Positions 3,741-62,025 of a stretch of 64,000 nt of DNA are shown here, in pieces; position 1 is the stretch's first letter, and each line of letters begins with the position of its first letter. Below the pieces are notes generated by a model. It saw only the letters and a list, made by a program, of their open reading frames with translations. It had not been told where the DNA came from and searched no databases. The translations under genes and the position numbers were made by a program. This DNA comes from Mobula hypostoma (Eukaryota), in contig NC_086097.1 in assembly GCF_963921235.1 (NCBI RefSeq), positions 27,964,001 to 28,028,000 on the forward strand, given 5' to 3'.

Positions 3741-4144
3741 GAGAATGGCATTTTTAAAATCAAGTCCAGTGAGAGCAAATGTGAACCCCTTACCATCAAA
3801 GATAGAGGATTGATAAAGAGGAATATGGAAATATCAAATTAATTAAACAAATACTTTGTGTCTGTTTTCACACGAGAAGGCACAACAAACTACACAACCA
3901 AGGGCCTAGTACAAATGAGGACCTGAAGGAAACTTATCAGTACAGGGTACCTCTGGGTTATGAACCCTACATACTTTCAAGCTCCCATTATAAATTCAAA
4001 GGACTGATGTATGCATATACATTTGTTCCTATGAGCAGCAGGACCAGTTTCCTCTTTCGCTCCATTTTCCAGTGATTTCTTATCAGTCTTGTGTGCTTAT
4101 GATTCCAGAAATGAGATTTATTATGACCGACCCAAATGACATGA

Positions 4145-4865
4145 AAGCAACGCACACAAAATGCTGTAGGATCTCATCAGGCCAGGCAGCATCTATGGAA
4201 AAGAATACAGTCGATGTTTCAGGCCGAGACCCTTTACCAGGACTGGAGAATGGTGGGGGGGGGGGGGGGAGGGCCCCATTACCAGAACTTCGAGAAATCG
4301 ATAGCCACAAAAAAGTAGGATCTCCCAGTGGCCACTCATTTTAATTCCACTTCCCATTCCCATTCTGATATGTCTATCCATGGCCTCCTCCACTGTCATG
4401 ATGAGGCCACACTCAGGTTAGAGGAACAGCACCTTATATTCCATCTGGGTAGCCTCCAACCTAATGGTATGAACACTGATTTCTCGAACTTCCAGTAACA
4501 CAAACTGCCCCAACCTTCACTATTCCTTATTCCCTTTTCACTGTCACCTTACCTTCTTGCCTGCCCATTGCTTCCTCTGGTGATCCGCCCCCTTTTTCTT
4601 TCTTCCATGGCCTACTGTCCTCTCCTATCAGACTCGCCCTTCTCCAGCCCTGAATCACTTTCATTAATCAAATTCCCAGCTCTTTACTTCACCTCTCCCC
4701 TTAACTTTCAACTCTACCCCTCATCTTTTTTTCTCCAATCCCGCTGAAGGGTTTCAGCCCAAAACATTGATTGTACTCTTTTCCATAGATGCTGACTGGC
4801 CTCCCAAGTTCCTCCAGCATTTTCTGTTGCTTGGATTTCAAGCATCTGCAGATTTTCTCCTATTA
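4145..4865. mobile_element. PLE remnant: inverted pseudo-LTR (4145-4302, minus) joined to GIY-YIG C-terminus and pseudo-LTR (plus)
   Basis: ggatctcccagtggccactcattttaattcc...ttccatctgggtagcctccaacctaatggtatgaac matches the PLE endonuclease end; the two termini are inverted copies of each other. Confidence 0.8.
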
Positions 4866-13547: not shown

Positions 13548-15980
13548 GCAGGCCAGGAGAAAAAAAGATAAGGAGTAGACTTAAAAGCTGGGACAATGGG
13601 AGAGAAAAACACAAGGTGATCGGTGAAACTGGCAGGGAGATGGATGAAGTAAAAAGCTGGGAAGTTGATTGGTGAAAGAGATACAGGGCTGAAGAGAGAA
13701 TCTAATAGAAGAAGGCATGGAAAAATGAAGAGGTGGGAGGAGCACCAGAGGGAGGCAATGGGCAGGCAAGGAGATAAGGTGAGAGAGAGAAAAGGAGACG
13801 TAGAATTGGGGAATGGTGAAGTGGGTGGGGGGAACCAGAAGTTTGAGAAATCAATGTTCATGCCATCAGGTGGAAGGCTACCCAGACAGAATATAAGGTG
13901 TTGTTCCTCCAACCCGAGTGTGGCCTCATCACAGCAGCAGAGGAGGCCACAGATTTATATATTGGAATAGGAATGGGAAGTGGAATTAAAATGGGTGGTC
14001 ATTGGGAGAACTCGCTTCTTCTGGCAGAGCTTAGGTGCTCAGTGAAGCAGTCTCCCAATCTCCGTCCGGTCTAACCAGTACACAGGTGGTCTACTCAAGA
14101 TCCACAAACCCGCTTGTCCAGGTAAACCCATTGTTTCAGCTTATTCCTGTCCCACTGATCTCATCTGCATAACTCGCCTCTGTTTTATCTCTCCCAGTTC
14201 AGTCCCTTCCTATCTACATCCACGACACATCACACACTCTGGATATTTTCAATGATTTCAAGGTCCCTGGTCTCCAACATCTTATTTTCACTATGGATGT
14301 CCAGTCCTTATACACCTCCGTCCCCCACCAGGAAGGCTTTGAAGCTCTCCATTTTTGGTCACCAGACCCAACCAGTTCGCCTCCGCCACCACTCTCTGGT
14401 CCTCCAGCAGAACTTTCTCCTTTGGCTCCTTCCGCTTCCTTCAAACAAAAGGTGTATCCATAGGCACTTGTTTGGGTCCCAGCTATGCCTGCCTTTTTGT
14501 CGGCTGCATGGAACAGTTTATGTTCCAAGCCTACACTGGTGTCTGCCCCCCACTTTTCCTTTGCTACATCGACGACTGCATTGGTGCTGCTTCCTGCACA
14601 CAGGTGGATATCACAGATTTTAACTTCGTCTCCAAACTTCCACGTTGCTCTCAAATTTACCCAGTCCATTTCCGACACCACCCTCTCTTCTCAATTTCAT
14701 TATCTGTATCTCTGGAGACAGCTTATCTACTGATGTCTACTATAAACCCACTGACTCTCACAGCTACCTGGAGTATACCTCTTCCCACCGTTACTTGTAA
14801 TAACACCATCCCCCTTCTCCCAATACCTCCATCTTTGCCGCATCTGCTCTCACAATGAGGCTTTTCATTCCTGAATGAATGAGATGTCCTCGGGACTTCC
14901 CTTCCTCCATCAATGCTGCTCTCAACCACATTCTTTTCATCTCACACATGTCTGCTCTTACCCCATACTCCCGCCACCCTACCAGGGATAGGGTTCCTCA
15001 TCCTCACCTACCACCCCAACTGCCTCCGCATCCTGTGCACAATTCTCTGGAACTTCCACCATCACCAATGGGAGTCCACTACCAAGCACGTTGTTCCCTC
15101 CCTCCACCAGTTTCTGCTTTCCACAGGGATCGCTTCCTAAGCAATTCCCTTCTCCATTCGTCCCTCCCCACTGATCCCGCTCCTGGCACTTATCCTTGCA
15201 AGCGGTACAAGTGCTACACCTGCTCCTACACCTCCTTCCTTACAACCATTCAGGGCCCCAAACAGTCCTTCCAGGTGAGTGACACTTCACCTGTGAGTTT
15301 GTTGGTGTCATATACTGTTTCCAGCGCTCCTGGTATGGCCTCCTGTATATCGGTGAGACCCGACAGAGATTGGGAGACCGCTTCACCGAGCACCTACATT
15401 CTGTCCGCCAGAAGAAGTGGGATCTCCCAGTGGCCATCTATTTTAATTCCACTTGCCATTCTGATATGTCAAATCATGGGTTCCTCTAATGTCGCGATGA
15501 GGCCCACTCAGATTGGAGGAGCAACACCTTCTATTCCGGCCGGGTAGCCCCCAACCTGATGGTATGAATATTGATTTCGTCAACTTCCAATAATCCCCTC
15601 CCAACTTCCTTCACCACTCCCCATTCCCTTTTCCCTCTCACCTTATCTCTACCTGCCCATCACCTCCCTCTTTTCTTTCTTCATGGCCTCTGTCTTCTCC
15701 TATTAGACTGGCCCTTCTCCAGCCCTGTATTTCTTTCACCAATTGTCTTCCTAGCTCTTTACTTTATCCCTACCCCTTCCGGTTTCACCCATCACCTTGT
15801 GTTTCTCTTTCCAATCCCCCACCTTGTAGAACTACTCATCTTCTTTTCCTCCAATTCTGCAAAATGGTTTCAGCCTGAAATGTCAACTCTACTTTTTATC
15901 CATAGATGCTGTCTAGTCTGCTGAGTTCCTCCATCATTTTGTATGTGTTGTATGAATACCTAGCATCCATAGATTTTCTC
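13548..15980 (+). mobile_element. PLE (older copy) with inverted 5' pseudo-LTR/EN segment (13548-14100, minus) and RT-GIY-YIG body (plus)
   Basis: ORF 14355-14858 has GPSYACLFVG...YIDDCIG; CKRYKCYTC linker; minus ORF 13517-13912 has EEQHLIFCLGSLPPDGMNIDFSNF. Confidence 0.88.
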
Positions 15981-17200
15981 ATCTCTGTTTGAAATTCCTC
16001 CTCATCTCTGTTCTAAAGGGACGTCCTTCAATTCTGAGGTTATGCCTCAGGCCCAAAACTGCCCCACTAAAGGAAACATTCTCTCCTCTTGTAAACTCCA
16101 GAGAGTACTGGCCATAGGCCATCAAATGTTCCTGATACATTAACCCAGTCATTCCCAACATCTTGCTTGTGAACCTCCTCTGGACCCTCTCCAATGCCAG
16201 CAAATCCTTTTTAAGATAAGGGACCTAAAACGGCCCACAATACTTCATGTGCAGTCTGATCAATGCCTTCTAAAGCCTTAGTATTACATTCTTTTTATAC
16301 TTTAATCCTCTCAAAATGAATGTTAACATTGTATTTGCCTTCTCTACCACTGACTCAACCTTTAGGAAATCCTGCACAAGGACTCCCAAGTCCCTTTGCA
16401 CCTTTGATTTCTGTATTTTCTTTCCATTTTAAAAATAGTCTATGACTTTACTCCTTTTACCAAAGTGCATGACCATACATTTCCCTACACTATATTCTAT
16501 CTACCACTTCTTTGGCTATACTCCTGAACAGTCTAAGTCCTTCGGCAGACTTCCACACCATTACCTCCCTTCAACCTATCATCTGCAAACATGGCCACAA
16601 AGCAAGCAATTACATTGCCCACATCATTGACATATAACGTGAAAAGAAGCGGTTCCAACACCAGCCCCTGTGGAACACCACGAGTCACCAGCAGCCAATT
16701 AGCAAAGGCCCCATTTATTCCCAGTCTTTGCCTCCTGCCAATCAGTGAATCTTCCACTTCTGTTAGAATCTTTCTTGCAATACTATATCTCGTTTAGCAG
16801 ACTCAGATGCAGCACCATGTCAAAGGCCTTGAAAATTCAAGTAACCAACATCCACTAACCCTCTTGTCTATCCAGCCTGTCATTTCCTCAAATAATTCCA
16901 ACAAGTTTGTCAGGTAAGATTTCCCCTTAAGGAAACCATGCTGATTTTGGCCTACTTTATTGTGCCAAGTACCTTGAAACCTCATCCTTAATAATGAACT
17001 CCACCATCTTGCCAACACTCAAGTCAGGCTAACGGGCCTACAATATAATTTCTTTTGCCACCCTACTTTCTTAAAGAGTGGAGTGACATTTGCAATTTTC
17101 CAGTCCTCAGGAACCATTCCAGAATCCAGTGATTCCTGAGAGATCACTGCTAATGAATCTTCAATCTCTTCAGCTACCTCTTTCAGAACTGAGGTGTAGT
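15981..17200 (-). mobile_element. CR1 LINE fragment
   Basis: LERVQRRFT, GVPQG, FADD and VPEDWKIANVTPLFKK in ORFs 15979-17261. Confidence 0.85.
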
Positions 17201-17239
17201 CCATTTTAGAACATGGATCAGTAACTTGAAGCTGCAAAG

Positions 17240-18365
17240 TTGTAGCCATTACATTAGCCACTCGGTTGTCACAACAGTAGGAATGGCTGTCGAATGTTCC
17301 AGGGTTTTAGATGTTTCAAAAAGGACAGGAAGGGAATTAAAAGAGGTGGGGAGTGCTAATCAGGATAGTATTACAGCTACAGAAAGTAAGGCCATCATGG
17401 AAGGATCCTCTACTGATTCAGTCTGTGGAAGTCAGAAACAGGAAGGGAGAAATTACTCTAGTGAAGGGGCTCCTAATTTTTTTTAATACCATGGACCCCT
17501 ATGATTAACAGAGGTGTCCATGGACCCCAGGTTGGGAATCCCTGCTCTTGGGAATTTTCTAAATAACCCCCAAAAGCAACAAAGCCACTGAGGAACAGAC
17601 TGGGAGGCAGATTTTGTAAATATGCAAAAATAACAGGATTGTTTTCTTCTTCAGGGTGATTCTACTTCCCCAATATTTATTGATACTTTCTTAATACAAG
17701 AAGTTGAGATGGGGCAGAATTTCTCAGCTGTGTCCAGGAAGGATTTCTGACACTATCTGGACAAGCTGACTATAGAAGAGGTCATACGGCATCTAGTATT
17801 AAGCAATAAACCTGGTCAGATCTCTTGGTGGACAAACATTTCAGAGACAGTGACCACAACTCCCTGAACTTGACCACAGCCTTGGACAAGGATAAGAGCA
17901 GCAGTATAGGAAAGTTTTTAATTGGGAAAGGACTAATTATGATGCCATTAGTAGGAATTGGAAGTGTAAACAGCGAACAGATGTACTCAGGGAAATTATC
18001 AACAGAAATGTAGATGTTGTTTAGGAAGTTCTTACAGGGAATTCGGAATAGGTTTGTCTCATTAAGGCAGGGAACATGCTATAGAGTTAAGAGGCCCTCA
18101 TTATAGTTGACAAGAGAAGTGAAACATTTAGTTAAGTGAAAGATGAAAGCATACTTACGCCTGTAAGTCCATGACGAGTGATGTTTGCAGGGATCTCTGC
18201 TCTTTGTGATTTTTATAAATGTCTCATATTCAGAAAGACTGGTTTAGTAAGTTTGCAGATGAGACAGGGGTTTGTGGTGTGGTGGACAGCGGAAGGTTGT
18301 TGTATATTGACATTGGGGCATTGACAGGATGCAGATTTGGGGTGAGAAGTGGCAGATGAAATTTG
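17240..18365 (+). mobile_element. Degraded CR1 (endonuclease to RT fragments)
   Basis: SDHNSL motif (17825-18013); gtaagtttgcagatgag; gtggcagatgaaattt. Confidence 0.7.
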
Positions 18366-19020
18366 AGTCATAGAACACTACAGCACAGAAACTGGCCCTT
18401 TGGCCCAATTAGTCCATACTAAGCCATTAAACTGTCTAGTCTCATCAAACTGCACTCAGACCACAGCCCTCCCATCTGTGTACCTATCCAAATTTATTTT
18501 AACTTTTGAAATAGAACCACCATCTACCACTTAAGCTGGCAGCTTGCTCCACATTCTCACAACCCTCTGAGTGAAGTTCACCCCCATGCTCCCCTTAAAC
18601 ATTTCACCTTTCACCATTAAGCCATGACCTCTGGTTGAGGTTTCACCCAACCTCAGCAGAAAAAGCCTACTTGCATTTACCCTATCTATACCTTTCATAA
18701 TTTTGAGTACCTCTATCAAATCTCATTAATATTCTTTTTAAGGAATAAAGTTCTAACTTTTTCAACCTTTCCTTATATCTCAAATCCTCAAGTCCCAGCA
18801 ACTTAATTGAATTTTTTTTCTGCATCCTTTCCTTCTTATTTGCATCTTTCCTGTGGGTAGATGACCAAAACTAGACACAGTACTCCAAAATGAGTATTTA
18901 TTACTTAATTTTAAATGCCAAGCTACTGAACTTACTTGACCAACCTCCCATGCGTGACTTTGTCAAAGTCCATGTGGACAGTATGCATTGCCTCACCTTT
19001 AACTTTCTTGGTAACTTCCA
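18366..19020 (-). mobile_element. CR1 3' fragment
   Basis: ORF 18531-18719 IEVLKIMKGIDRVNASRLF...FTQRVV; tail catagaacactacagc. Confidence 0.85.
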
Positions 19021-19245
19021 AGGTGAGACCAGGTGAGGAGGATCCTCACAGGGTCTCACCTATACCCCTCACCTGGATTGAAATATTAAATCAGTTTGAT
19101 TCAAGGGGAATACACTTTATTTTCAAAGTAAAATTAAAAGAATATTGCAAACAACAGGAATTCTGCAGATGCTGGAAATTCAAGCAACACACATCAAAGT
19201 TGCTGGTGAACGCAGCAGGCCAGGCAGCGTCTGTAGGAAGAGATG

Positions 19246-19283
19246 CAGTCGACGTTTCAGGCCGAGACCCTTCGTCAGGACTA
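19246..19283 (-). ncRNA. Minimal hammerhead ribozyme motif, sense to the RPS6KA5 pre-mRNA
   Basis: Exact reverse complement of 20557-20594. Confidence 0.75.
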
Positions 19284-20556
19284 ACTGAAGGAAGAGTGAG
19301 TAAGGCATTTGAAAGTTGGAGGGGGAGGGGGAGATCCAAAATGATAGGAGAAGACAGGAGGGGGAGGGATGGAACTAAGAGCTGGACAGGTGATTGGCAA
19401 AAGGGGATACGAGAGGATCATGGGACAGGAGGTCCAGGAAGAAAGACGGGGGGGTGGGGCCAGAAAAAGGAGAGTGAGAGAAAGAATGTGTGCATAAAAA
19501 TAGGTACAGATGGGGTACGAGGGGGAGGTGGGGCCTAGCGGAAGTTAGAGAATCCAACCTGATGGCATGAACATAACTCTGCTCTCAAACGCATCTCGCC
19601 CATTTCACGTACATCTGCTCTCACTCCATCCTCCCGCCACCCCACTAGGAATAGGGTTCCCCTGGTCCTCACCTACCACCCCACCAGCCTCCGGGTCCAA
19701 CATATTATTCTCCGTAACTTCCGCCACCTCCAACGGGATCCCACCACTAAGCACATCTTTCCCTCCCCCCCCTCTGCATTCCACAGGGATCGCTCCCTAC
19801 ACAACTCCCTTGTCCATTCGTCCCCCCATCCCTCCCCACTGATCTCCCTCCTGGCACTTATCCGTGTAAGCGGAACAAGTGCTACACATGCCCTTATACT
19901 TCCTCCCTTACCACCATTCAGGGCCCCAAACAGTCCTTCCAGGTGAGGCAGCACTTCACCTGTGAGTCGACTGGGGTGATATACTGCGTCCAGTGCTCCC
20001 GATGTGGCCTTTTATATATTGGCGAGACCCGACGCAGACTGGGAGACCGCTTTGCTGAACATCTACGCTCTGTCCGCCAGAGAAAGCAGGATCTCCCAGT
20101 GGCCACACATTTTAATTCCACATCCCATTCCCATTCTGACATGTCTATCCACGGCCTCCTCTACTGTAAAGATGAAGCCACACTCAGGTTGGAGGAACAA
20201 CACCTTATATTCCGTCTGGGTAGCCTCCAACCTGATGGCATGAACATCGACTTCTCTAACTTCCGCTACGCCCCACCTCCCCCTCATACCCCATCTGTTA
20301 CTTATTTTTATGCACACATTCTTTCTCTCACTCTCCTTTTTCTCCCTCTGTCCCTCTGAATATACCTCTTGCCCATCCTCTGGGTCCCCCCGCCCCCTTG
20401 TCTTTCTTCCCCGACCTCCTGTCCTATGATCCTCTCGTATCCCCTTTTGCCAATCACCTGTCCAGCTCCATCCCTCCCCCTCCTGTCTTCTCCTATCATT
20501 TTGGATCTCCCCCTCCCCCTCCAACTTTCAAATCCCTTACTCACTCTTCCTTCAGT

Positions 20557-20594
20557 TAGTCCTGACGAAGGGTCTCGGCCTGAAACGTCGACTG
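20557..20594 (+). ncRNA. Minimal type I hammerhead ribozyme motif in the PLE pseudo-LTR
   Basis: tagtc-CTGACGA-agg(gtctcgg)cct-GAAA-cg-TC-gactg: stem I tagtc/gactg, intact core, 3-bp stem II, palindromic ACGT in place of stem III, GUC triplet at 20587-20589. Confidence 0.75.
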
Positions 20595-21279
20595 CACCTC
20601 TTCCTACAGATGCTGCCTGGCCTGCTGCGTTCACCAGCAACTTTGATGTGTGTTGCTTAAAAGAATATTGTTTTACTTGCCCATTGGAATGCACAACAAA
20701 GGTTTAAAATAAGGGATTGAGAAGCAATTCAGGGCACGAGTCGTGTTCAAATGTAAAAGTAAATAGCTGCCTTCACTACAATGTAGTTCACATTAAATAT
20801 TTTGAAATGTTATTCCCATGCGATTTCTCCCATTTTATTATTCTATTTCATGGATTTATCCCTTAAATAGGCATATACTACTGTGTAAAATCCAGGGGCC
20901 TTCTTATAGAAAAAAGTAAGCTGTTACCCGACACAGTGGTAGAGATTACTGACTGAGATTACTCCTAAATGACCAGAATCCTGCAATTCAAGGGCAACAA
21001 ACAGTTTATCCCTTTTGGTTGGTAGAAGTGAGTTGTTTTATGGTGGGAAACTACTAAAATGCTAGTGCTCAGGCATTATTACAAGGAACACAAAGTTAGC
21101 CTGCAGGTATACAAGAAACATTTGAGAAGGCAAATGGAATGTTGACTCAATTCCAAAGGGAATGGGAGAAAGATCTGGGAAGTCCTGCTCCAAATCTGTA
21201 GGGAGACCATATCTGTAGAATTGTCCTATTTATAAAAGGAAAAATAAATGCTTTGGAGGTGTTGCAGTAAATATTCATT

Positions 21280-21605
21280 AGATTAGTTAAATGTGTCAAC
21301 TGTACATGAAGACATACTTTGAAATGCATCACTTGTGTCAACGACCACAGTCCAAGGATTGTGTTGGTGGCAGCATGCAAGTGTTGCCACATTTTTGGCA
21401 TCAACATATAGTATGCACACAACTCGCTAACCCTAACTGTATGTCATTGGAATGTGGAAGGAAATTAGAGCACTCGGAGGAAACCTACACAGACACAGGG
21501 AGAACATACAAACTCCCTACAGGAATTGAACCTTGATTGGTGATCGCAGGTGCTGTAAAGCATTGCGCTAGCCACTATACCGCTAGCCGCTATACCGCCG
21601 TGCCT
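21280..21605 (-). mobile_element. tRNA-derived V-SINE/HE1-like SINE
   Basis: ggaaggaaattagagcactcggaggaaacc is the reverse complement of the V-SINE-type GGTTTCCTCCGGGTGCTCCGGTTTCC domain; tRNA-like head near 21520-21600. Confidence 0.7.
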
Positions 21606-22139
21606 TTCTCAATCCCATTAGATTGATTCCTAGGATAAAGGTGTGTCCTGTGAATAGTGATTGAGGTGAAAAGGTTCTGTATTCTTTAGAGTTTAGAATA
21701 AGTAGTGATCTCAACTGAAACATTAGATTCTGAGTGACTTGACAGGACATATAACGAGAAGGGGAAATCTAGAACAAGGAGTCATGCTTAGGAAAGGAAC
21801 CAGCTATTTAAGTTTGAGGACAGAAAAAGGAATTTCTTTGTTGAGGTTTGAGAAGTTTTTGGCAGGGCTGTGGTGGCTGAGTCAGTGTGCAGAATTAGAT
21901 ATGGGGACTTTACAGTTAAGAAATCAGAGACTTAACCCCAGATTCTTCCGAATGGTAAAACAAGCTCAATGGGCCATATGGTCAATTTTAATTTCTTGTG
22001 ATTTTGTGTGTTAGGTAACAAAAATATTTTCTAATGAGGATGTTACTAGGACTAGAGGACATGAGAAGGATTGAGTAGTTGGCCAGGCTAGGTCTTTAGT
22101 CCTTGGAATACAGGAGTATGAGAGGCAATCTTATATCTT

Positions 22140-22560
22140 ATAGTAGAAGGAGGCGGAACCATGAGGGAGGTGATAGGCAGCTGGGGGAGGGGGCAGAGTG
22201 AAACTGGGATGGGGGAAGGGAATTACTGGAAGTTTGAAACTGGGATGGGGGAAGGGAGGGGGAGGGAATTACCGGAAGTTTGAAACTTGGTTCCACCTCC
22301 TTCTACTACCCACTGTGCTTTCCCCTATTCCTTCTTCACCTTTCCTGCCTATTCCCTCCCCCACCCCTTTATCTTTCCCCTTACTGGTTTTTCACCTGGC
22401 ATCTACCAGCCTTCTCCTTCCCACCCTCACCCCACCTTCTTTATAGGGCTCCTGCTTCCTTCCTCTTCACTCCTGACGAAGGGTTCCAGCCCAAAACATT
22501 GACTGTTCTTTTCCACGGATGCTGCCCAACCTGCTGAGTTCCTCCAGCGTGTTGTGAGTG
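22140..22560. mobile_element. PLE pseudo-LTR pair (inverted), diverged subfamily
   Basis: tagtagaaggaggcggaacca (22141) is inverted relative to tggttccacctccttctacta (22288); cctgacgaagggttccagcccaaaacattgactg. Confidence 0.7.
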
Positions 22561-22579
22561 AATCTTCTACAAGTGTCAC

Positions 22580-22870
22580 TGATAATGTGCATGGTAACAA
22601 TCTATTTCACAGGGTAGGGGAGTGTGAAGCTAGGAAGCGCAAGATTAGGGTGAGAAGAGAATGATTTATAAGGGGATCTGAAGGACAACCTTTTCATGCA
22701 GAGTACATGAAACAGGCAGCCAGGAGAAGTGGTTGAGGCAGGTACAACATCATTTAAGAAGCACTTGTATAGGTACATGGATGAGTGAGGCAAACACAGG
22801 ACTAAAAGTGTGAACATCATGAATAGGCTGAAAGGTCTATATCTGTGCTTTATTGTTCTATGATTCTATA
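22580..22870 (+). mobile_element. CR1 3' fragment
   Basis: agaagtggttgaggcaggtacaac...tgttctatgattctat tail. Confidence 0.7.
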
Positions 22871-23214
22871 ATAACCTCATCGTATCTTGCACAGATAAAA
22901 GACTCAAATCATTGTGCAGGTGACATTCAAGTTTCAGAGTCATACAGTGTGGGAGCAACCCATTCAGCCCATCACATCCACACCAATCAGTGGGCACCCA
23001 TATTCCAGCACATGGCTCTTATTTTTCCATGCCTAGATAGCTTAAGTGGTTGTCCACATATTTCTTAAAATGCATTTGGCAATTCTGCCTTCAACAAGTT
23101 CTCAATCATTGACAGTGAAATTATCAAGCTCCCCAATCTACAAAGTAAACATTGTGTGTCCTCTTTACCAGGTTAAACCCAATGCAATCCTTACCCAGAA
23201 GTGGTGTGCCTTAC

Positions 23215-23330
23215 CTTGTGTAGATGTTCCAGTGCCAGCACTATCTCCCCACTGTATATTCTCACTGCATTCTCTGTGAAACGTTCTCTTTGTGACAAGT
23301 GAGTGAATAATTCCCCTCCATTCACATAGT
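23215..23330 (-). CDS. RPS6KA5: MSK1 internal coding exon of 116 bp (probably exon 4)
   Basis: Not in the ORF track. Reads (D)YVNGGELFTHLSQRERFTENAVRIYSGEIVLALEHLHK. Acceptor tgacag|AC, donor CACAAG|gtaag; phase 1/0, joins in frame with the 219-bp exon. Confidence 0.96.
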
Positions 23331-23606
23331 CTGTCATATAAAACGAAATGTTATTCACAAAATAAAGAAACTGACTGAATAAAATGGAGAAAATACATAG
23401 CAGGAGATAATGTTAAACAGAAACAGATGTTTAGCAGCATAATGCGAATAAGAATTTACTTTCAGACAATTTACTAACTTACTAATAAGAAAAAACTGCA
23501 TTGACTTTTTGCCACGCTTGTTAATAAATATAGAGTTTTTTTCCAGGATGTTACCCAAAAAAAAAGCTGATGACGGCAAAGCAGTCAATGTTGTCTACAT
23601 GGATTT

Positions 23607-25638
23607 TATCATCATAATTATGTACTGTGTCGTATGACCATGGGCAATCATTGTCTTTCCACCACCATGATTGTTTTTGGCAAATTTTTCTAAAGAAGTG
23701 GTTTTCCATTGCCGTCTTCTGGGCACTGTTTTTACAAGATGGGTGACCCCACCTATTATCAATACTCTTCAGAGAATGTCTGCCCAGCATCAGTGGTCGC
23801 ATAATCCGTATTTGTGATATGCACCAACTACTCATATGACCGTAAACATGAGGAAATCTGCAGATGCTGGAATTTCAAGCAACACACATAAAAGTTGCTG
23901 GTGAAACGCAGCAGGCGAGGCAGCATCTCCAGGAAGGGGTACAGTCAACGGTTCGGGCCGAGACCCTTCATCAGGACTAACTGAAAGAAGAGCAAGTAAG
24001 AGATTTACAGAGGATGGGCAAGGGATATAGTGAGAGGGACAGAGGGAGAAAAAGGAGAGCAAGAGAAAAAGAATGCGTGTGTAAATAAATAAATAAATAA
24101 ATAACAGATGGGGTGCCGGGGGGAGGGGGGTGGTGGGGCATTAGCAGAAGTTTGAGAAGTCAATGTTCGTGCCATCAGGTTGGAGGCTACCCAAACAGAA
24201 CATAAGGTGTTGTTCCTCCAACCTGAGTGTGGCTTCATCTTGACAGTAGAGGAGGCCGTGGATAGACATATCAGAATGGGAATGGGATGTGGAATTAAAA
24301 TGTGTGGCCACTGGGAGATCCTGCTTTCTCTGGCGGACACAGCGTAGGTGTTCAGCAAAACGATCTCCCAGTCTGCATCGGGTCTCATCAATATATAGAA
24401 GGCCGCATCAGGAGCACCGGATGCAGTATATCACCCCAGCTGACTCACAGGTGAAGTGTCGCCTCACCTGGAAGGACTGTCTGGGGCCCTGAATGGTAGT
24501 GAGGGAGGAAGTGTAAGGGCACGTGTAGCACTTGTTCCACTTACAAGGGTAAGTGCCAGGAGGGAGATCAGTGGGGAGGGATGGGGGGGACGAATGGACA
24601 AGGGAGTCGCGTAGGGAGCGATTCCTGCGGAAAGTGGGGGGGGGAGATGTGCTTAGTGGTGGGATCCCGTTGGAGGTAGCGGAAGTTACAGACAGTTATA
24701 TATTGGACCCGGAGGCTGGTGGGGTGGTAGGTGAGGACAAGGAGAACCCTATTCCTAGTGGGGTGGCGGGAGCATGGAGTGAGAGCAGACGTGCGTGAAA
24801 TGGGGGAGATGCGTTTGAGAGCAGAGTTGATGGTGGAGGAAGGGAAGCCCCTTTCTTTAAAAAAAAAGGACATCTCCGTCGTCCTGGAATGAAAAGCCTC
24901 ATCCTGAGAGCAGATGCAGTTGAGATGGAGGAATTGCGAGAAGGGGATGGCATTTTTGCAAGAGACAGGGTGAGAAGAGGAATAGTCCAGATAGCTGTGG
25001 AGTCAGTAAGCTTATAGTAGACATCAGTAGATAAGCTGTCTCCAGAGATAGAGACAGAAAGATCTAGAAATGGGAGGGAGGTGTCGGAAATGGACCAGGT
25101 AAACTTGAGGGCAGGGTGAAAGTTGGAGGCAAAGTTAATGAAGTCAACGAGCTCAGCATGCGTGCAGGAAGCAGCACCAATGCAGTCGTCGATGTAGTGA
25201 AGGAAAAGTGGGGGACAAATACCAGAATAGGCTTGGAACATAGATTGTTCCACAAAGCCAACAAAAAGGCAGGCATAGCTGGAACCCATACGGGTGCCCA
25301 TGGCTACACCTTGAGTTTGGTGGAAGTGGGAGGAGCCAAAGGAGAAATTATTAAGACTAATTCCGCTAGACAGAGCAGAGTGGTGGTAGAGGGGAACTGG
25401 TTAGGTCTGGAATCCAAAAAGAAGCGGAGAGCTTTGAGACCTTCCTGATGGGGGATGGAAGTATATAGGGGAAGTATATACTCATATGACCATCCACCAC
25501 CTGTTCCCATGGCTTCAAAAGATCCTGATCAGGGAACTAAGCAAGTGCTACACCTTGTCCAAGGGTGGCAGGCTAGTGGAGGGAAGGAGCATGCCTAACA
25601 TCTCTTTTGGTAAAGACGCAACTCCACCCTGCCACCCA
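23607..25638 (-). mobile_element. Short non-coding retroposon (possibly an RTE-related SINE), split by a PLE insertion
   Basis: Halves at 23607-23841 and 25479-25638 join through the PLE TSD; ATGATGAT-type tail; interrupts the CR1 YMDF motif. Confidence 0.5.
23842..25478 (-). mobile_element. 5'-truncated Penelope-like element (RT, linker, GIY-YIG, pseudo-LTR)
   Basis: TSD tactcatatgacc at 23829-23841 and 25479-25491; ORF 24696-25301 MGTRMGSSYACLFVG...YIDDCIG...LPFLDL; near-identical to 19575-20656. Confidence 0.93.
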
Positions 25639-26719
25639 AAATGGACTTCAACAAGACACTTCACATGGTCCTATATGGAAGGTTGGCCAAGGAGTGCCAA
25701 GTCATTTGGCATTTATAATGAGTATATTGGGCCAGCAGGAAAAATAGGCTGAACAATGGCAGATGGTATTTAATGCAGACAAATGTGAGGTGTTGCACCT
25801 GGGAGGACGAACCAGGGTAGGTCTTGCATTGGCCCCTGAGGAGTACGGTAGAAGAAAGGGATCTGGGAATACAGGTCCATAATACATTGAAAGTGATATC
25901 ATAGGTACATGGGGTCATTATGAAAGCTTTGGGCATATTGGCTTTCATAAATCAAAGTACTGAGTTGACACGTTATGTTGAAGTTGTACAAGATGTTGCT
26001 GAGGCATAATTTGGAGTATTGTGCACAGTTTAGATCACCTACCTACAGGAAAGATGCAAATAAAGTTGAAAGAGTACAGAGAAAATTTACAAGGATATTG
26101 CTGGGACTGAAAGGCCCGAGTTGTAAGGAAAGATTGAAAAGGTTAGGACTTTATTCCTTGGCAGGTAGAAGTTTGAGGGGAGATTTGATACAAGTGCACA
26201 AAATTATGAGGGGTATAGATAGGGTAAATTCAAGCAGGCTTTTTCCACTAAGGTTGGGCGAGACTACAACTAGAGGACATAGGTTAAGGGTGCAAGGTGA
26301 AATATTTAAGGGGAACATGAGGGGAAATTTCTTCACAGAGTGGTGAGAGTGTGAAATGAACTACAAGTGCAAGTGGTAGATGCGATTTTGATTTCAATGT
26401 TCAAGAGAAGTTTAGATAGGTAGATGAATTGGAGGGTTATGGAGGGCTATGAGCTGGGTGCACATCAATGGGACTAGGCAGTTTAAATGGCTTGGAACAG
26501 ACCAGCTGGGCCAAATGGCCTGTTTGTATTGTTTTCTAGGATTCTAAATCACTAAAGTTAATTTTTGCAATCCCTTCCACTTTAGTTATGAGAAACCACT
26601 TGCATCAGTTTCATAAAAACACTTAAGCAAAAAAAAAACTGGCGTATGACTAGTACCATTTTTAGAGTGCCTCTCACTTCCATTTTAGGAAGCTCCAAAC
26701 TGCTTCCCCCCACCAACAA

Positions 26720-27030
26720 AAGTTAGCTTTATTTATCACATGTGCATCAAAACATACAGTAAAATGCATTATTTGCACCAATCAAATCAACGAGGATTGT
26801 GTTGGACAAGTGTTGCCTCACTTTCGACGCCAACATAGCATGCCCACACTTACTAACCCTAACCCATACATCTTTGGAATCCATCAGGAAACTGGAGTGC
26901 CCGGAGGAAATTCACATGGTCATGCGGAGAATGTAAAGACTCCTCACAGGCAGACATGGGATTTGAATCCCAATCATTGAGGACTGGCGCTTTGAAGCAA
27001 CTGGGCCAACCACTACGTTATTGTGCCAAC
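26720..27030 (-). mobile_element. V-SINE/HE1-like SINE
   Basis: ttagctttatttatcacatg tail; aggaaactggagtgcccggaggaaa. Confidence 0.7.
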
Positions 27031-27147
27031 TCTTTTTTTAAAAAAAGGTTTTCATATTAACAGTTTTTTTTCAGCTCAGTCATTATAGCACTACAGGAAA
27101 ATAGGCAGGAAAGTTTACACAGCAAGATCCCATAAATGTCAGCAAAA

Positions 27148-27330
27148 ATGTTCAAAGTAAATTATCATAATACATGTATGTCACCATATACTACCCTGAA
27201 ATTCACTTTCTTACATGCTTTCACAGTAAAACAAAGAAATGCAATAGAATCAATGAAAAACCATACATGCAGACTGATAACCAATGGCCAAAAAAAAAAT
27301 GTGCAAATACAAAATAATAATAATGAATTT
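27148..27330 (-). mobile_element. Rex1-type LINE 3' UTR fragment
   Basis: ttcaaagtaaattatc...tgtcaccatatactaccctga is the reverse complement of the 3' end at 53910-53970. Confidence 0.6.
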
Positions 27331-28202
27331 TTAACATCTTTACCAAATGACAACACACTCAATCAGGTGTCAGTCAGATAGATGAGTATTACAAGTTGGT
27401 AAAAGCAAAAGTACAAAATACATCACAAAGGAAAAAGGTTCCAATTGTTCTGATGGCTGGATACTTTTTCGCAGAACATTTTGTGCACATTCGTTTGTTA
27501 TTTAACTTTGTCTACGTTTCAAATGTAAAAACATAATACTGAATTGTACAGAACAAATATGAAACAGTATGGAATTCAAAAAATCTGAATCAACAGGAAA
27601 AGAATGGAAAAAGAGCCATCTGGGAGGCCAGAACAATCACTCTATTGTTCATTGACTTCTGAAGTTTTCTTTGACCCCAACTGTGTCAAGCAGATGGCAC
27701 ATTACTGACATTTTCAAGTCAGTAACATTGGACTGTACATCACTACAGTTGCAAACATGTACAAAACTGGCCAGGTGAAGTGAAATGGACAGTTTGCCAA
27801 CAAAACTCTGTTAATAGTCCCAACTGTAAGAAATTCCAAAGACAAACAATTGCTAACTATTTTCAACACGTAACTTGCAACACAAAAGCCAAACAAGTTA
27901 ATTCCCCATTCAAGGATTTCTTATAATTTTCAGAGTTATAAGCACATAAACCCAGAAGACTGCATTTGAGAAGTCTTACAATAAAGGCCATTAAACTCAA
28001 AGCATATGGAATTCAGAAAAAAATGGAAATAAATGCTAGTGGAAATAGAAACAGCATCTGATATTTCATGCAGACAATGGCAACACGTTGCATAAAGGAG
28101 GAAGCGTATTCAAAGCTTTCTCCATGGTGTTGAAATAACTATGGACAGAATTGAAAAGGACAAACAAGATGAACTCAACAAGTCAGGCGGCATCTCTAGA
28201 GA

Positions 28203-28740
28203 GGGCAGCATGGTAGTGTAGCTTAACATATCGCTTTACACCGCCCGCAATCAGCAATTTGGTTTCAATTCCCGCTGCTATCGGCAAGTTCTCCCTGTAA
28301 CCGTATGGGTTTCCTCTGGGTGCTCTAGTTTCCTTCAAAAATCCAAACCCATACAGGCTAAGACTACTAAGTTGGCGTTAGACACGTGGCAGCATGTGAG
28401 CAGCCCCCAGCACAATTTTTGAATGTGCATTGACACAACAATGTATTTCACTGAACACACGAGGAAACCTGCAGATGCTGGAATTTCAAGCAACACAAAT
28501 AAAAATTGCTGGTGAACGCAGCAGGCCAGGCAGCATCTATGGGAAGAGGTACAGTCGACTCTTCCTCAGGACTAAGTGAAAGAAGAGATGTAAGTTAGTC
28601 CTGACGAAGGATCTCGGCCTGAAACGTCAACTGTACCTCTTCCTATAGATGCTGCCTGGCCTGCTGCACTTACCAGCAATTTTTGTGTGTCGCAATATAT
28701 TTCACTGTATGCTTCAATGTGACAAATAAAGCTAATTGTT
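28203..28740 (+). mobile_element. V-SINE/HE1-like SINE interrupted by a mini-PLE hairpin
   Basis: A-box-like tggtagtgtagc, B-box-like ggtttcaattccc, gggtttcctctgggtgctctagtttcc, tail tgtgacaaataaagctaat. Confidence 0.72.
28454..28692. mobile_element. Mini PLE-derived inverted-repeat insertion carrying a hammerhead motif (28596-28633)
   Basis: TSD caat(g/a)tatttcactg at 28439-28453 and 28693-28707; arms at about 28500-28559 and 28625-28684 are reverse complements. Confidence 0.85.
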
Positions 28741-33589: not shown

Positions 33590-36500
33590 GAAGATATCCA
33601 TCATCATCCTGGTGGTGGTGCATATTCCACCTCAAGCCAAAGTCAGGCAGGCACTGGAAGAGCTGAGCACTGAACAGCAGTTACTAGACAGTGCACCCAG
33701 ATACCTTCCCTATCACTGCAGGGAATTATAACCAGGCCATTTAAAGGTATCTGTGAACAACTACCAGTAACACATCACCTGTGGAACCAGAGGAACCATC
33801 ACTCTTGATCACTGTTATACCACCATTAAGAATGCTTACCATGACATTCCATGCCCGCACTGTGTCTATATGTGGGGAGAAGTAATACAACCAGGTGATC
33901 AGACTTTACAGAGGCAAAAGACCACAGCACCAGAGGTGAGGACCAAGAAGGTATTGTCAAGGGAGGTGGAGGGGCGCTTACAGTACTGCTTTGAGTCAAT
34001 AGTCTGGACAAAATTCAAGGATTCATCTGCAGATCTGAACAAATAGGCCACAATTGTCACCGACTTCATCAAGACCTGTGTAGAACAATGTGTGCCTTTG
34101 TGAACATACCAGATATTCCTAAACCAAAAGCCTTGGATGAACCTGGAGATTTGTCGTCTGCTCATGGCTAGGTCTGTGGCATTCAAGACTAGTAATCCAG
34201 ACTATACAAGTCAAGTTACAGCCTAAGGAAGGCTATGTTAAGAGTGAGTGAACAATTACAATTGAAGTTAGAGACAAGTTTGAATGTACATCAGGCAGGG
34301 TTTGCAGGCCATTACCTCCTACACGACGAAACCTATCATTATGTATGGTTGTGATACATCACTCCCAGATGAGCTCAATACCTTTTATGCACACTTTCAA
34401 TGGGAGAATAAAACTACACCTGTGCGAATCCCTGCAGCATCTGGAGACCCTGTAATCTGTGTCTTGGAGGTTAATGTTAGAACATCTTTCAAGAGTGTGA
34501 ACCCTTGCAAGGCATCAGGTTCCGATGGTGTACCTGGCAGGGCTCTGAAAACCTGTGCCAACCAACTGGTGGGCATGTTCAAGAACATCTTCAATCTCTA
34601 ACTGTTGCAGATGCACGTTCCCACCTGCTTCAAAATGTTGACAATCATACGAGTACCCAAGAAGAGCTGGGCGAGTTGCCTCAATGACCATTGCCCAGTT
34701 GCACACACATCTACTGTGATGAAGTGCCTTGAAAGGTTGGTCATTGTCAGAATCAACTCCTGCCCAAGGACTCAGACACACTGAAATTTGTCTATCACCA
34801 CATTAGGTCTACAGCGATGCAATCTCACTGGCTCTCCTCTCAGCCTTGGATCAGCTGGACAATAACAGTATCTACATCAGGCTGCAGTTTATGATTACAG
34901 CTTAGCATTCAATACCATCATACCTTCAGTCGAATCAACAAGCTCCAAAACCTAGGCCTCTGTACCTTCCTCTGAAACTGGAATCTTTGACTTCCTTACC
35001 AAGAGGCTACAGTCTATGCAGATCAGAAATAACAACCCCACCTCACTGACTATCAACACAGGCATACCTCAAGGATGGGTGCATGGCCCACTGCACTACG
35101 CTCTCTGCACCCACTGTGCAGCTAGACACAACTCAATCACCATCTATAAATTTTCAGATGATACAATTATTGTTGGCAGAATTTCAGATGGTGACAAGGT
35201 GGTGTACAGGAGCAAGACAGATCAGCTGATTGAGTGGTGTTCCAATAACAATCTTGCACCCAACATCAGTGAAAACAATGAATTGATTATGGACTTTAGG
35301 AAAGGGAGGCTGAGGGAAACACAACAGTCCTCATCGAGCAGAAAGGCAACAGTTTCAAGTTCCTGGGTGTCAACTTCTCTGAGGATCTATCCTGGGTCCA
35401 ACATATTCATGCAATTACAAAGGTGGCACAACAGTGGCTGTATTTCATTCAGAGTTTGCAGAGATTTGGTATGACACCAAAGACACTCAAATATCTGCAG
35501 ATGTACTGTGGAGAACATCTAATAAGTTGCATTACCATCTGGTATGGAGGGGATCACTGCACAGAATCAGAAAGCTGCAACCAGCTCTATCAAAGGCACT
35601 AGCCTCACCAGAATCGAGAACATCTTCAAAAGGCAATGTCTCAAGAAGGTGGCAGTTGGCCATGAAGAAATTAAAATATGGAAGGAAACATCGAACTCAA
35701 ATGAGTCAAGATGGACAGTGGAAGTAGACAAACCACTTGTCTTTTGTTCTTACCAAGGAATGGAGGCTGCCATTTTGTGAAACTGCTCTGTTACCTCCAT
35801 TTTATGAGCAGTCTAGTGAACTGGTTTACTCTGGATCAAAGTGCTTTAAAATGATGCTCTTAAAAACTGCTGGTAAACGCAGCAGGCCAGGCAGCATCTA
35901 TAGGAAGAGGTACAGTCTGTCCTGACGAAGGGTGTCGGCCCAAAACATCGACTGTATCGCTTCCTATAGATGCTGCCTGGCCTGCTGTGTTCACCAGCAA
36001 TTATTATGTGTGTTGCTTGAAATTCCAGTATCTGCAGATTTCCTTGTGTTTGCATAATGATGCTCTTAATAATCTGCTGAACTAGAGATAATTTCCAAAT
36101 AAGAAAGTACTTGTGATGTGCTCTTTGGTAATATAAAACATGTAGGTTATGAGTAGGGAGTATGTATTTGACCCGAGAAACTAGAGCCTAGTAACTGGCC
36201 GGTGTGCTCTGATTCAAAGCAAAGACATTAATTACAACATTTAAACTGATAAAGGAGGTAAAAGAATGAGGGGTTTGAATGCGAAGTATTGAGAGGTCTG
36301 GAGACTATGCCAGGGGCTGAGCGAAGGAGCTATCATTTGGCCGACAGGAGATTTCCTATTTCAGTGTTATAAATTGGAGAAGTGGTCTGAGTGAATGTTG
36401 GTACAGAGGGAAAAGTAGAATTCATGTTTTAGGTTTTGTACAAGCTTTGATAAATTAAAAGCTGTGGGATGAATTACCCAACTTTGATCAATTGATGATA

Positions 36501-37586: not shown

Positions 37587-39798
37587 ATAGAAACCATAGA
37601 AACTACAGCACAGAAACGGGCCTTTTGGCCCTTCTTGGCTGTGCTGAACCATTTTCTGTCTAGTCCCACTGACCTGCACACGGACCATATCCCTCCATAC
37701 ACCTCCCATCCATGTATCTGTCCAATTTATTCTTAAATGTTAAAAAAGAACCCGCATTTACCACCTCGTCTGGCAGCTCATTCCATACTCCCACCACTCT
37801 CTGTGTGAAGAAGCCCCCCCTAATGTTCCCTTTAAACTTTTCCCCCCTCACCCTAAACCCATGTCCTCTGGTTTTTTTCTCCCCTTGTCTCAGTGGAAAA
37901 AGCCTGCTTGCATTCACTCTATCTATACCCATCATAATTTTATACACCTCTATCAAATCTCCCCTCATTCTTCTACGCTCCAGGGAATAAAGTCCCAACC
38001 TATTCAACCTTTCTCTGTAACTGAGTTTCTCAAGTCCCAGCAACATCCTTGTAAACCTTCTCTGCACTCTTTCAACCTTATTTATGTCCTTCCTGTAATT
38101 TGGTGACCAAAACTGAACACAATACTCCAGATTCGGCCTCACCAATGCCTTATACAACCTCATCATAACATTCCAGCTCTTATACTCAATACTTTGATTA
38201 ATAAAGGCCGATGTACCAAAAGCTCTCTTTACGACCCTATCTACCTGTGATGCCACTTTTAGGGAATTTTGTATTTGTATTCCCAGATCCCTCTGTTCCA
38301 CTGCACTCCTCAGTGCCTTACCATTAACCCTGTATGTTCTACGTTGGTTTGTCCTTCCAACGTGCAATACCTCACACTTGTCAGTATTAAACTCCATTTG
38401 CCATTTTTTAGCCCATTTTTCCAGCTGGTCCAAGTCTCTCTGCAGGCTCTGAAAACCTTCCTTACTGTCTACTACACCTCCAATCTTTGTATCATCAGCA
38501 AACTTGCTGATCCAATTTACCACATTATCATCCAGATCATTGATATAGATGACAAATAACAATGGACCCAGCACTGATCCCTGTGGCACACCACTAGTCA
38601 CAGGCCTCCACTCAGAGAAGCAATTCTCTACCACCACTCTCTGGCTTCTTCCATCGAGCCAATGTCTAATCCAATTTACCACCTCTCCATGTATACCTAG
38701 CGACTGAATTTTCCTAACTAACCTCCCATGCGGGACCTTGTCAAAGGCCGTACTGAAGTCCATGTAGACAATATCCACTGCATTCCCTTCATCCACTTTC
38801 CTGGTAACCTCCTTGAAAAATTCCAATAGATTGGTCAAACATGACCTACCACGCACAAAGCCATGTTGACTCTCCCTAATAAGTCCCAGTCTATCCAAAT
38901 GCTTGTAGATTCTGTCTCTTAGTACTCCCTCCAATAACTTACCTACTGCTGACGTTAAACTTACCGGCCTATAATTTCCCGGATTACTTTTCGATCCTTT
39001 TTTAAATAACGGAACAACATGAGCCACTCTCCAATCCTCCGGCACCTCACCTGTAGACAGCAACATTTTAAATATTTCAGCCAGGGCCCCTGCAATTTCA
39101 ACACTGGTCTCCTTCAAGGTCTGAGGGAACACCCTGTCAGGTCCCGGGGATTTATCCATTTTAATTTTCCTCAAGACAGCAAGGACCTCCTCCTTTTCGA
39201 TCTATACAGTTTCCATGATCTCACTACTTGTTTCCCTTAATTCCATAGACTTCATGCCAGTTTCCTTAGTAAACACAGACGCAAAAAACCTATTTAAGAT
39301 CTCCCCCATTTCCTTTGGTTCCCACATAGCCGACCACTCTGATCTTCAAAAGGACCAATTTTATCCCTTACAATCCTTTTGTTCTTAATATACCTGTAAA
39401 AGCTCTTTGGATTATCCTTCACTTTGACTGCCAAGGCAACCTCATGTCTTCTTTTAGCCCTCCTGATTTCTTTCTTAAGTATTTTCTTGCACTTCTTATA
39501 CTCCTCAAGCACCTTATTTACTCCCTGCTTCCTATACACATCATACAACTCCCTCTTCTTCTTTATCAGAGTTGCAATATCCCTTGAGAACCAAGGTTCC
39601 TTATTCCTATTCACCTTGCCTTTAATTCTGACAGGAACATACAAATTCTGCACTCTCAAAATTTCTGCTTTGAAGGCTTCCCACCTACCGATCACATCCA
39701 TGCCAGAGAACAACCTGTCCCAATCCACGCTTTTTAGATCCTTTCTCATTTCTTCAAATTTGGCCTTCTTCCAGTTAAGAACCTCAACCCTAGGACCA
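37587..39798 (-). mobile_element. Young 5'-truncated CR1 LINE with an uninterrupted 504-aa RT region
   Basis: ORF 37660-39174 (NYRPVSLTS, QHGF, GVPQGSVLGP, FADD); upstream ORF 39294-39749; tail (TTTCTATGG)2. Confidence 0.95.
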
Positions 39799-61100: not shown

Positions 61101-62025
61101 ATAAGACAGCCTTCTAAAAAAAACGCTGTCATGACGGCATCCTGATGACTCCACTCGGAGTCAAGGGCTTTCTTCTATTAAAATAGACACATCTCAAACC
61201 ATCGGTCTGAGTGCATCCCTTCTCTATCACCTGTCTATCCTCTCTCTCACACTGCCTACAAGCTTTCTTTCTCTATTTCTGACCCAACCACCTCTTCCTC
61301 CAGCTCTTCAGTTTTGCTCCCCCCTCCCCCCCCCCCCCAGCAATTCTAGTTTAAACTCTCTCCAATAGTCTTAGCAAACTTCCCTGCCAGGATATTGGTC
61401 CGCCTCAGATGCAAGTACAATCCACCCTTATTGTACAGGTCACACCTGCCCCAAAAGAGGTCCCAATAATCCAGAAATCTGAATCTCTGCCCTCTGCTCC
61501 AATTCCTCAGCCACGCATTTATCCTCCAACTCAGTCTATCCCTATACTCACTGTCGCATGGTACAGGCAGTAATCCCGAGATTACAACGCTTGTAGTCCT
61601 GCCTCTATCCTTCTTTCCCAACTCCCTGTAGTCTGTTTTCAGGACCTCCTCCCTTTTCCTACCTATGTCGTTGGTACCAGTATGTATCACGACCTCTGGC
61701 TGTTCACCTTTCCACTTTAGGATATTGTAGATGCGATCAGAAACATCCTGGAGGAAAACTACCATCAGTGTTTCTTTCCTGCTACCACAGAATCGCCTGT
61801 CTGACCCCCTAACTATAGAGTCCCTCACTGCTGCCATCCTCTTCCTTTCCCCACCCTTCTGAGCCACAGGGCCAGACTCTGTGCCAGAGACACAGTTGCT
61901 TCCCTCAGGTAGGTCCTCCCACCACCCCGCGCCCACCAACAGTACTCAAACAGGAGTACTTATTATTAAGGGGGACAGCCACAGGGGTACTCTCTAGCAT
62001 CTGACTCTTCCCCTTCCATCTCCTG
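58160..62025 (-). mobile_element. Near full-length degenerate CR1 (ORF1 SGNH esterase and ORF2 APE-RT)
   Basis: ORF1 61346-61939 DSIVRG...HTGTND...RINAWL...LDYWDLFW; ORF2 pieces 58309-60929 include SDHNSI, NYRPVSLTS and FADYTK. Confidence 0.92.
60968..61176 (+). mobile_element. 209-bp tRNA-derived SINE inserted in CR1
   Basis: TSD attaaaatagaca at 60955-60967 and 61177-61189; A-box-like tggtgctgtaatag, B-box gagttcggttcc; tail ctttcttct. Confidence 0.8.

Follow-up and report, generated by a model that had tools for sequence, protein, structure and literature searches.

Two inverted copies of a hammerhead-like motif in a ray genome raise the question of whether they act as ribozymes and, if so, whether the element carrying them depends on RNA self-cleavage for its propagation. 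In the window (the whole 64-kb stretch of DNA analyzed here), the two 38-nt motifs at 20557-20594 (plus strand) and 19246-19283 (minus strand) are identical letter for letter. The original prediction had interpreted them as minimal, dimer-type hammerheads that sit in pseudo-LTRs of a Neptune-like Penelope family from chondrichthyans, a family that processes its RNA by cleavage after GUC. We consider it probable that the locus is a dead, inverted Neptune-like insertion with a hammerhead at both ends, that its active parent cuts slowly after GUC, and then only as a strand-swapped dimer or with the help of protein, and that the present copy was made from uncut RNA. RNA processing at 20589 is a prediction from the sequence that the present data do not support, and this copy can be explained without it.

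The insertion carrying both motifs

Both motifs are held by one Penelope insertion, 5'-truncated and Neptune-like, with inverted pseudo-LTR arms. Its parts, including the flanking duplications, are:

19134-19147, plus: left target-site duplication, 14 bp, AT-rich, an exact 14-nt match to 20657-20670
19148-19552, minus: inverted pseudo-LTR arm with the tail at its end, ORF stop codon kept (seen by blastn and by aligning the two arms)
19148-19182, minus: tail of 34-36 nt, in the left arm only and missing in the right arm (second end class at 19183, run X15)
19246-19283, minus: left copy of the minimal type I hammerhead, cleavage predicted between 19251 and 19250
19553-19574, plus: templated piece of 22 nt at the inversion junction, identical to 20226-20247 (blastn, 100%)
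19575-20269, plus: ORF remnant, 5'-truncated, matching residues 139-387 of P0001 and thus the end of the RT-EN polyprotein
19865-19891, plus: CX4CxxC linker (translation; fits CX2-5CxxC of Neptune/Nematis)
19973-20200, plus: GIY-YIG endonuclease domain with CxxC...H...H residues (Pfam PF01541 and translation)
20252-20656, plus: right pseudo-LTR arm, no tail, the last two bases ambiguous with the duplication
20557-20594, plus: right copy of the minimal type I hammerhead, cleavage predicted after GUC at 20589
20657-20670, plus: right target-site duplication, an exact match to the left copy

The motif thus lies in the pseudo-LTR, about 290 nt past the end of the GIY-YIG ORF, and again in the inverted arm. 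The ORF remnant matches P0001 in two frames (tblastn, 94% and 89% identity), carries a frameshift near 19823-19826, has lost its stop codon at 20267-20269 and is devoid of the RT catalytic core; without the RT core, this copy is dead. Related elements carry the RT upstream (P0009: RVT_1, E = 1.5e-4). Among 14 hits, the best relative of the element protein was a Mobula hypostoma protein with 95% identity, and Hypanus sabinus proteins reached 76-88% where most of the query was covered, which makes a myliobatiform ray the likely host.

The features of EN+ Penelope elements are present, namely a GIY-YIG domain with CCHH residues, an inverted 5'-truncated copy and a one-sided tail of 30-40 bp. The domain match to PF01541 (E = 1.5e-4, 22.5 bits) falls just below the cut-off of 22.6. 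Neptune-type elements are characterized by inverted copies, by a tail on one side and by the linker (PMC8557442, in part), and the tail is described in PMC11167929 as well. The CX4CxxC linker, which is also found in Nematis, makes an assignment to the Neptune clade likely; in vertebrates, only Neptune and Poseidon were found, according to the portions covered of a preprint (bioRxiv 10.64898/2026.07.22.740005). We considered a non-LTR retrozyme as well and rejected this identity, since the copies are inverted and flank an ORF remnant, as opposed to head-to-tail tandem non-coding units.

In contigs assembled from four runs (assembled contigs, not raw RNA reads), loose ends pile up at 19147-19149, with unrelated AT-rich flanks beyond, and a second family end class is found at 19183. 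The 22-nt piece at the inversion junction derives from a source 4 nt upstream of the start of the inverted arm and has the orientation opposite to that arm. The two arms differ at 12 of 364 aligned positions, a divergence that gives P = 0.28 for 38 nt without a difference, and the identity of the two motif copies was therefore dismissed as a sign of selection.

Core and stem II of the motif

The motif is built from a 5-bp stem I (outer pair U·G), CUGACGA, stem II, GAAA-CG-UC and the 3' strand of stem I. All core positions (C3 U4 G5 A6 N7 G8 A9 ... G12 A13 A14 A15.1 ... U16.1 H17) are complete in both copies; in hammerhead numbering, position 17 may be any base but G. With identical 38-nt copies and an intact core, the assignment as a minimal type I hammerhead, carried by pseudo-LTRs of a Neptune-like Penelope element from a chondrichthyan, is borne out. 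The same holds for the predicted reduction of stem III, which can be read in the sequence: the segment 15.1-16.1 is the palindrome ACGU in place of this stem, and a lone motif is unable to close stem III.

Stem II, originally given as agg/ccu, needs to be corrected to GGGU/GCCU, with the pairs G10.1-U11.1, G-C, G-C and U-G, a CUCG loop and an unpaired A after A9. Its energy is -7.0 kcal/mol, versus -5.6 kcal/mol for agg/ccu. Further evidence comes from position 11.1, which is C in 5 and U in 9 of 14 window copies, the pair 10.1-11.1 being G-C in 5 and G·U in 9 (these position counts leave out the duplicate arm and one deleted copy from the 16 aligned). At the corresponding place in the contigs (19259), C accounts for 19-31% of the summed depth in the four runs, and it is present in 117 of 127 distant hits from metagenomes. 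A C at 11.1 breaks the A-U pair of agg/ccu and turns G·U into G-C, so that G10.1 fits as the partner of 11.1. The element at 19148-20656 has the wobble form G10.1·U11.1. The extra A between positions 9 and 10.1 is invariant (14/14 window copies). Among the variants listed for the four runs (40 of 59), seven fall inside the motif, six of them CpG changes and the seventh the U-to-C change at 11.1. In run X1, the core A/U positions were free of variants at or above 3% among those listed, which is not significant with only 14 changes at A/T positions in the 336-nt stretch.

Allowing up to two mismatches, the core pattern is found 11 times in the window (3 exact) versus 1.19 expected, and none of 100 shuffles reached 11; since the motif belongs to a repeat, these matches are not independent occurrences.

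Folding and geometry of the two copies

In the 38-mer on its own, GACG and CGUC of the core are predicted to pair with one another (p ≥ 0.98), and in a 219-nt context stems I and II form with p < 0.01. The double hammerhead reaches -11.5 kcal/mol versus -30.3 kcal/mol for the best two-strand fold, a gap of about 19 kcal/mol in nearest-neighbour energies, which omit tertiary stabilisation. On these models, the activity of the motif is expected to be weak. The two copies point outward on opposite strands, and no transcript has both in sense. In read-through RNA of either direction, all 38 nt of the sense motif are predicted to pair with the antisense arm. On strand geometry and folding, a dimer pair formed by the two inverted copies was rejected, and reading them as a working pair at this locus is not supported.

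The insertion likely resides in an intron of an RPS6KA5/MSK1-like kinase gene on the minus strand. Three consecutive exons of such a gene were found on this strand (42495, 23330-23215 and ~2696-2590), and the insertion lies within the ~20-kb intron between the last two. The left motif copy (19246-19283, minus) has the sense orientation of the host pre-mRNA. In this RNA the antisense arm would be read first and pair with the motif, which is why this copy is predicted to be masked; on this model the motif at this locus would be silent. Considering the motif region of all copies between 2.7 and 42.5 kb, 7 are in sense and 6 in antisense orientation relative to the pre-mRNA, which is a small number of copies. 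In the host pre-mRNA, the inverted arms (19148-20656) are predicted to anneal over about 360 bp, and this duplex is a possible substrate for RNA editing.

Conservation and covariation

In the 14 window copies, the core is slightly more conserved than the downstream pseudo-LTR (0.86 vs ~0.77, permutation p = 0.037), the 70 nt downstream of the core being conserved to nearly the same degree as the core. Covariation among the ray's own 16 copies is not significant (0.169 vs 0.159; 165 of 500 shuffles as high). For a view across distant families, we scanned 8 of 64 parts of a metagenome collection with a pattern in which the core and part of stem II were fixed while stem I and position 17 were left free, and obtained 127 hits at 123 loci. 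Here, 24 of 51 distinct stem I variants pair with at least 3 bp versus 6.6 ± 2.2 with shuffled partners; none of 5000 shuffles was as high and slid controls gave 0, 1 and 8, a number that is not a clean probability, as the shuffles ignore the relatedness of families. Position 17 is a base other than G in 123 of the 127 hits. Penelope protein matches were found also at 34 of the 123 loci, long flanks being available for only 80 of them. The hammerhead architecture is real: its stem I covaries across distant families and position 17 avoids G. The signal of structural selection is thin among the ray copies and strong across distant families, and covariation, which the original prediction named as a check, was seen for stem I of distant families, but not above shuffles among the 16 copies of the ray. 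Two of the metagenome loci, L005 and L006 on one contig, represent a related element that is nearly complete and flanked by hammerheads on both sides; by tblastn order, a putative ATG-led ORF on the minus strand begins some 190 nt downstream of where the upstream motif starts. The scan of viral contigs for the motif gave 0 matches.

These data also bear on the view that the motif is a chance resemblance, i.e., a short CUGANGA...GAAA string spread by a repeat with no ribozyme ancestry. The proposed check with covariance models failed to return a hammerhead, as the Rfam scan of 14000-28000 at E ≤ 10 contained no match to hammerhead families and 14 weak unrelated ones; the loose core pattern occurs without stems at 3 of 7 matched places, and the ray copies do not covary. 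Yet the site is the one for which Penelope hammerheads are described, all four class features given in the portions covered of PMC4209133 are present, and covariation is seen in this architecture among distant Penelope families, which makes mere resemblance very improbable.

Copying across the predicted cleavage site

The arms of the insertion reach 67-69 and 103 nt past the predicted cut on its 3' side and read across it, which means that the template was either uncut or re-ligated, as is published for Anolis PAc. As uncut and re-ligated templates leave the same DNA, a model of obligate processing stays as a rival to copying from uncut RNA. In that model, proposed in PMC4209133 and close to the original prediction, tandem transcripts would be cleaved at every GUC, then ligated again or closed into circles, and the circular RNA would serve as the template on which the cDNA passes the site.

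In the reading we favor, with copying from uncut RNA, the protein would have made a cut in each strand of the AT-rich target, the two being spaced by 14 nt, and a pair of cDNAs would have been primed from two positions inside the RNA that lie roughly 68 and 103 nt 3' of the hammerhead (these steps modeled on portions of PMC11167929 and PMC8557442). The cDNAs would then each have run through the ribozyme before being joined head to head. Cleavage in the active parent may involve two tandem motifs that swap strands, such that their ACGU palindromes pair and form stem III, after PMC4209133; such pairing of ACGU with ACGU is described there and in the review PMC6765202, as far as covered. A parallel is found in PAc, the Poseidon element from Anolis carolinensis (Frangieh et al. 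2024, PMC11167929), in which reverse transcription starts from two internal sites and the hammerhead cuts only in the presence of the protein. According to the portions covered, PAc core mutants still insert normally in vitro and no RNA reads begin or end at the site.

The ray family is very abundant: one run alone yielded 122,818 matching contigs, and a profile search found 17-18 related fragments in the window. Of the downstream window fragments, 16 of 17 start elsewhere than at the predicted cut. The first base of the remaining one (35917 down to 35861, minus) is the first after the cut, but this start is ambiguous, being readable also as a 4-nt microhomology join plus two later changes. 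Likewise, the minus arm of the copy at 28556 has a 15-nt deletion that took away the core's second half and whose end coincides with the GUC cut; it sits between two GTC repeats, and this end is ambiguous as well. Both instances were noticed post hoc. Among the 24 of 1135 rows of loose contig ends listed, there was no pile-up at the predicted cut, and a minor class ending there would be possible. Of the metagenome loci with an inverted partner, 0 of 26 have a partner that starts within 20 nt of the cut, in a set chosen for an intact motif and hence biased against such starts.

For obligate processing, then, speak the core, the stem I pairing and the non-G position 17 kept in distant families, the one window arm that starts at the predicted 3' product, the internal deletion ending at the same GUC, and the equivalence of ligated and uncut templates at the DNA level. 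Against this stand the PAc results on core mutants and RNA reads, the missing pile-up among the loose ends listed, and the success of Naiads elements, which thrive without canonical hammerheads (PMC8557442, in part). Taken together, we regard obligate processing as unlikely. A further reading would be that a minority of ray insertions was copied from the 3' cleavage product and starts right after GUC, leaving a fossil record of in vivo cleavage; we consider this doubtful.

The motif might instead have a non-catalytic role, either by binding protein near the priming sites or by ACGU pairing that brings two RNAs to one double-strand cut and so gives rise to inverted insertions. Inverted two-arm insertions are indeed frequent (4 in the window and 26 of the 123 metagenome loci), the 70 nt downstream are nearly as conserved as the core, and the PAc protein is a predicted dimer that extends both strands (PMC11167929, in part). 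However, residues specific for catalysis and the non-G position 17 are kept, PAc RNA is cleaved in the presence of protein with a C3/G8 rescue (PMC11167929), and Naiads form inverted structures and tails without the motif (PMC8557442), which renders a non-catalytic role quite unlikely.

Relation to known systems

Minimal hammerheads in the pseudo-LTRs of metazoan Penelope-like elements, including Xena, Poseidon and Neptune of fish, were described by Cervera and de la Peña in 2014 (PMC4209133), in agreement with the earlier statement that the class is known. The ray motif resembles them in its type I core, a stem I of 4-5 bp, the extra base that separates positions 9 and 10.1, G10.1, the palindromic 15.1-16.1 segment without loop 3 and the pseudo-LTR location, and also in the occurrence of close opposite-strand pairs, with most copies solitary and truncated. 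It differs in that stem II comprises 4 bp in the ray element versus 7-8 bp in the Schistosoma families, and the main ray subfamily has G10.1·U11.1 instead of G10.1-C11.1. The portions covered of PMC4209133 name no cartilaginous fish, and its supplementary figure may hold shark sequences; our literature search found no paper on this ray Penelope hammerhead family. The present data thus add a ray family to the class described in 2014.

The parallels to PAc (PMC11167929, in part) include a hammerhead without a stem III of its own, which lies upstream of a pair of internal ends separated by 30-40 nt (the tail), as well as an AT-rich target and copies that run through the cut site. PAc is a member of the Poseidon clade, with an ORF that begins within the hammerhead; the ray element has the Neptune-type linker. 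The PAc end geometry, in which ends spaced by 35 nt lie downstream of a hammerhead that was left uncut, is now seen in a Neptune-type element. With non-LTR retrozymes, which are reported from one chondrichthyan genome (bioRxiv 10.64898/2026.07.22.740005), the ray element shares a type I hammerhead, the dimer logic and a reported kinship to the pseudo-LTRs of Penelope-like elements, whereas retrozymes are non-coding head-to-tail tandem repeats with mostly canonical motifs and the ray element is inverted, ORF-bearing and equipped with a minimal motif (PMC7229834 and the same preprint, each in part). Owing to the high abundance of the family, tallying breakpoints across the genome could help to decide if hammerheads of Penelope elements are active in vivo. 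If insertions do begin after GUC, such a census could provide the first in vivo evidence of cutting, unlike the RNA reads from Anolis.

Other copies and elements in the window

The core is intact in 4 of the 16 aligned window copies and broken in 12, largely by CpG decay. Four inverted elements are present in the window, all with a one-sided tail, and 3 of the 4 tested have a target duplication of 14-17 nt; for the element at 4139-4860 a duplication was looked for and none was found. The fragment starting at 35917 is part of a small inverted Penelope insertion (35861-36054) with a 14-17-nt target duplication, the plus arm of which begins in stem I, and 28456-28692 is a small inverted insertion with a 15-nt duplication. 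In three of the four runs, loose ends accumulate at 19282, the 5' edge of stem I (484, 364 and 29 records), beyond which related subfamilies no longer match. About 19 nt after the cut, at 20596-20612 and its counterparts in other copies, a pyrimidine tract and AG followed by an ATG resemble a splice acceptor. An acceptor about 19 nt after the cut was rejected, as G makes up roughly half of the depth or more at the -3 base (19233) and no loose end was seen there among those listed. Longer Penelope remnants reach into the RT region at 23844-25477 (minus) and 14293-15980 (plus), the hammerhead core being broken in both; one is close to the subfamily of the 19148-20656 element and one is older. 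LINE-like remnants at 37660-39201, 34956-35474, 59371-59922 and 61346-61945 show RVT_1 matches and an ORF piece resembling a GDSL esterase.
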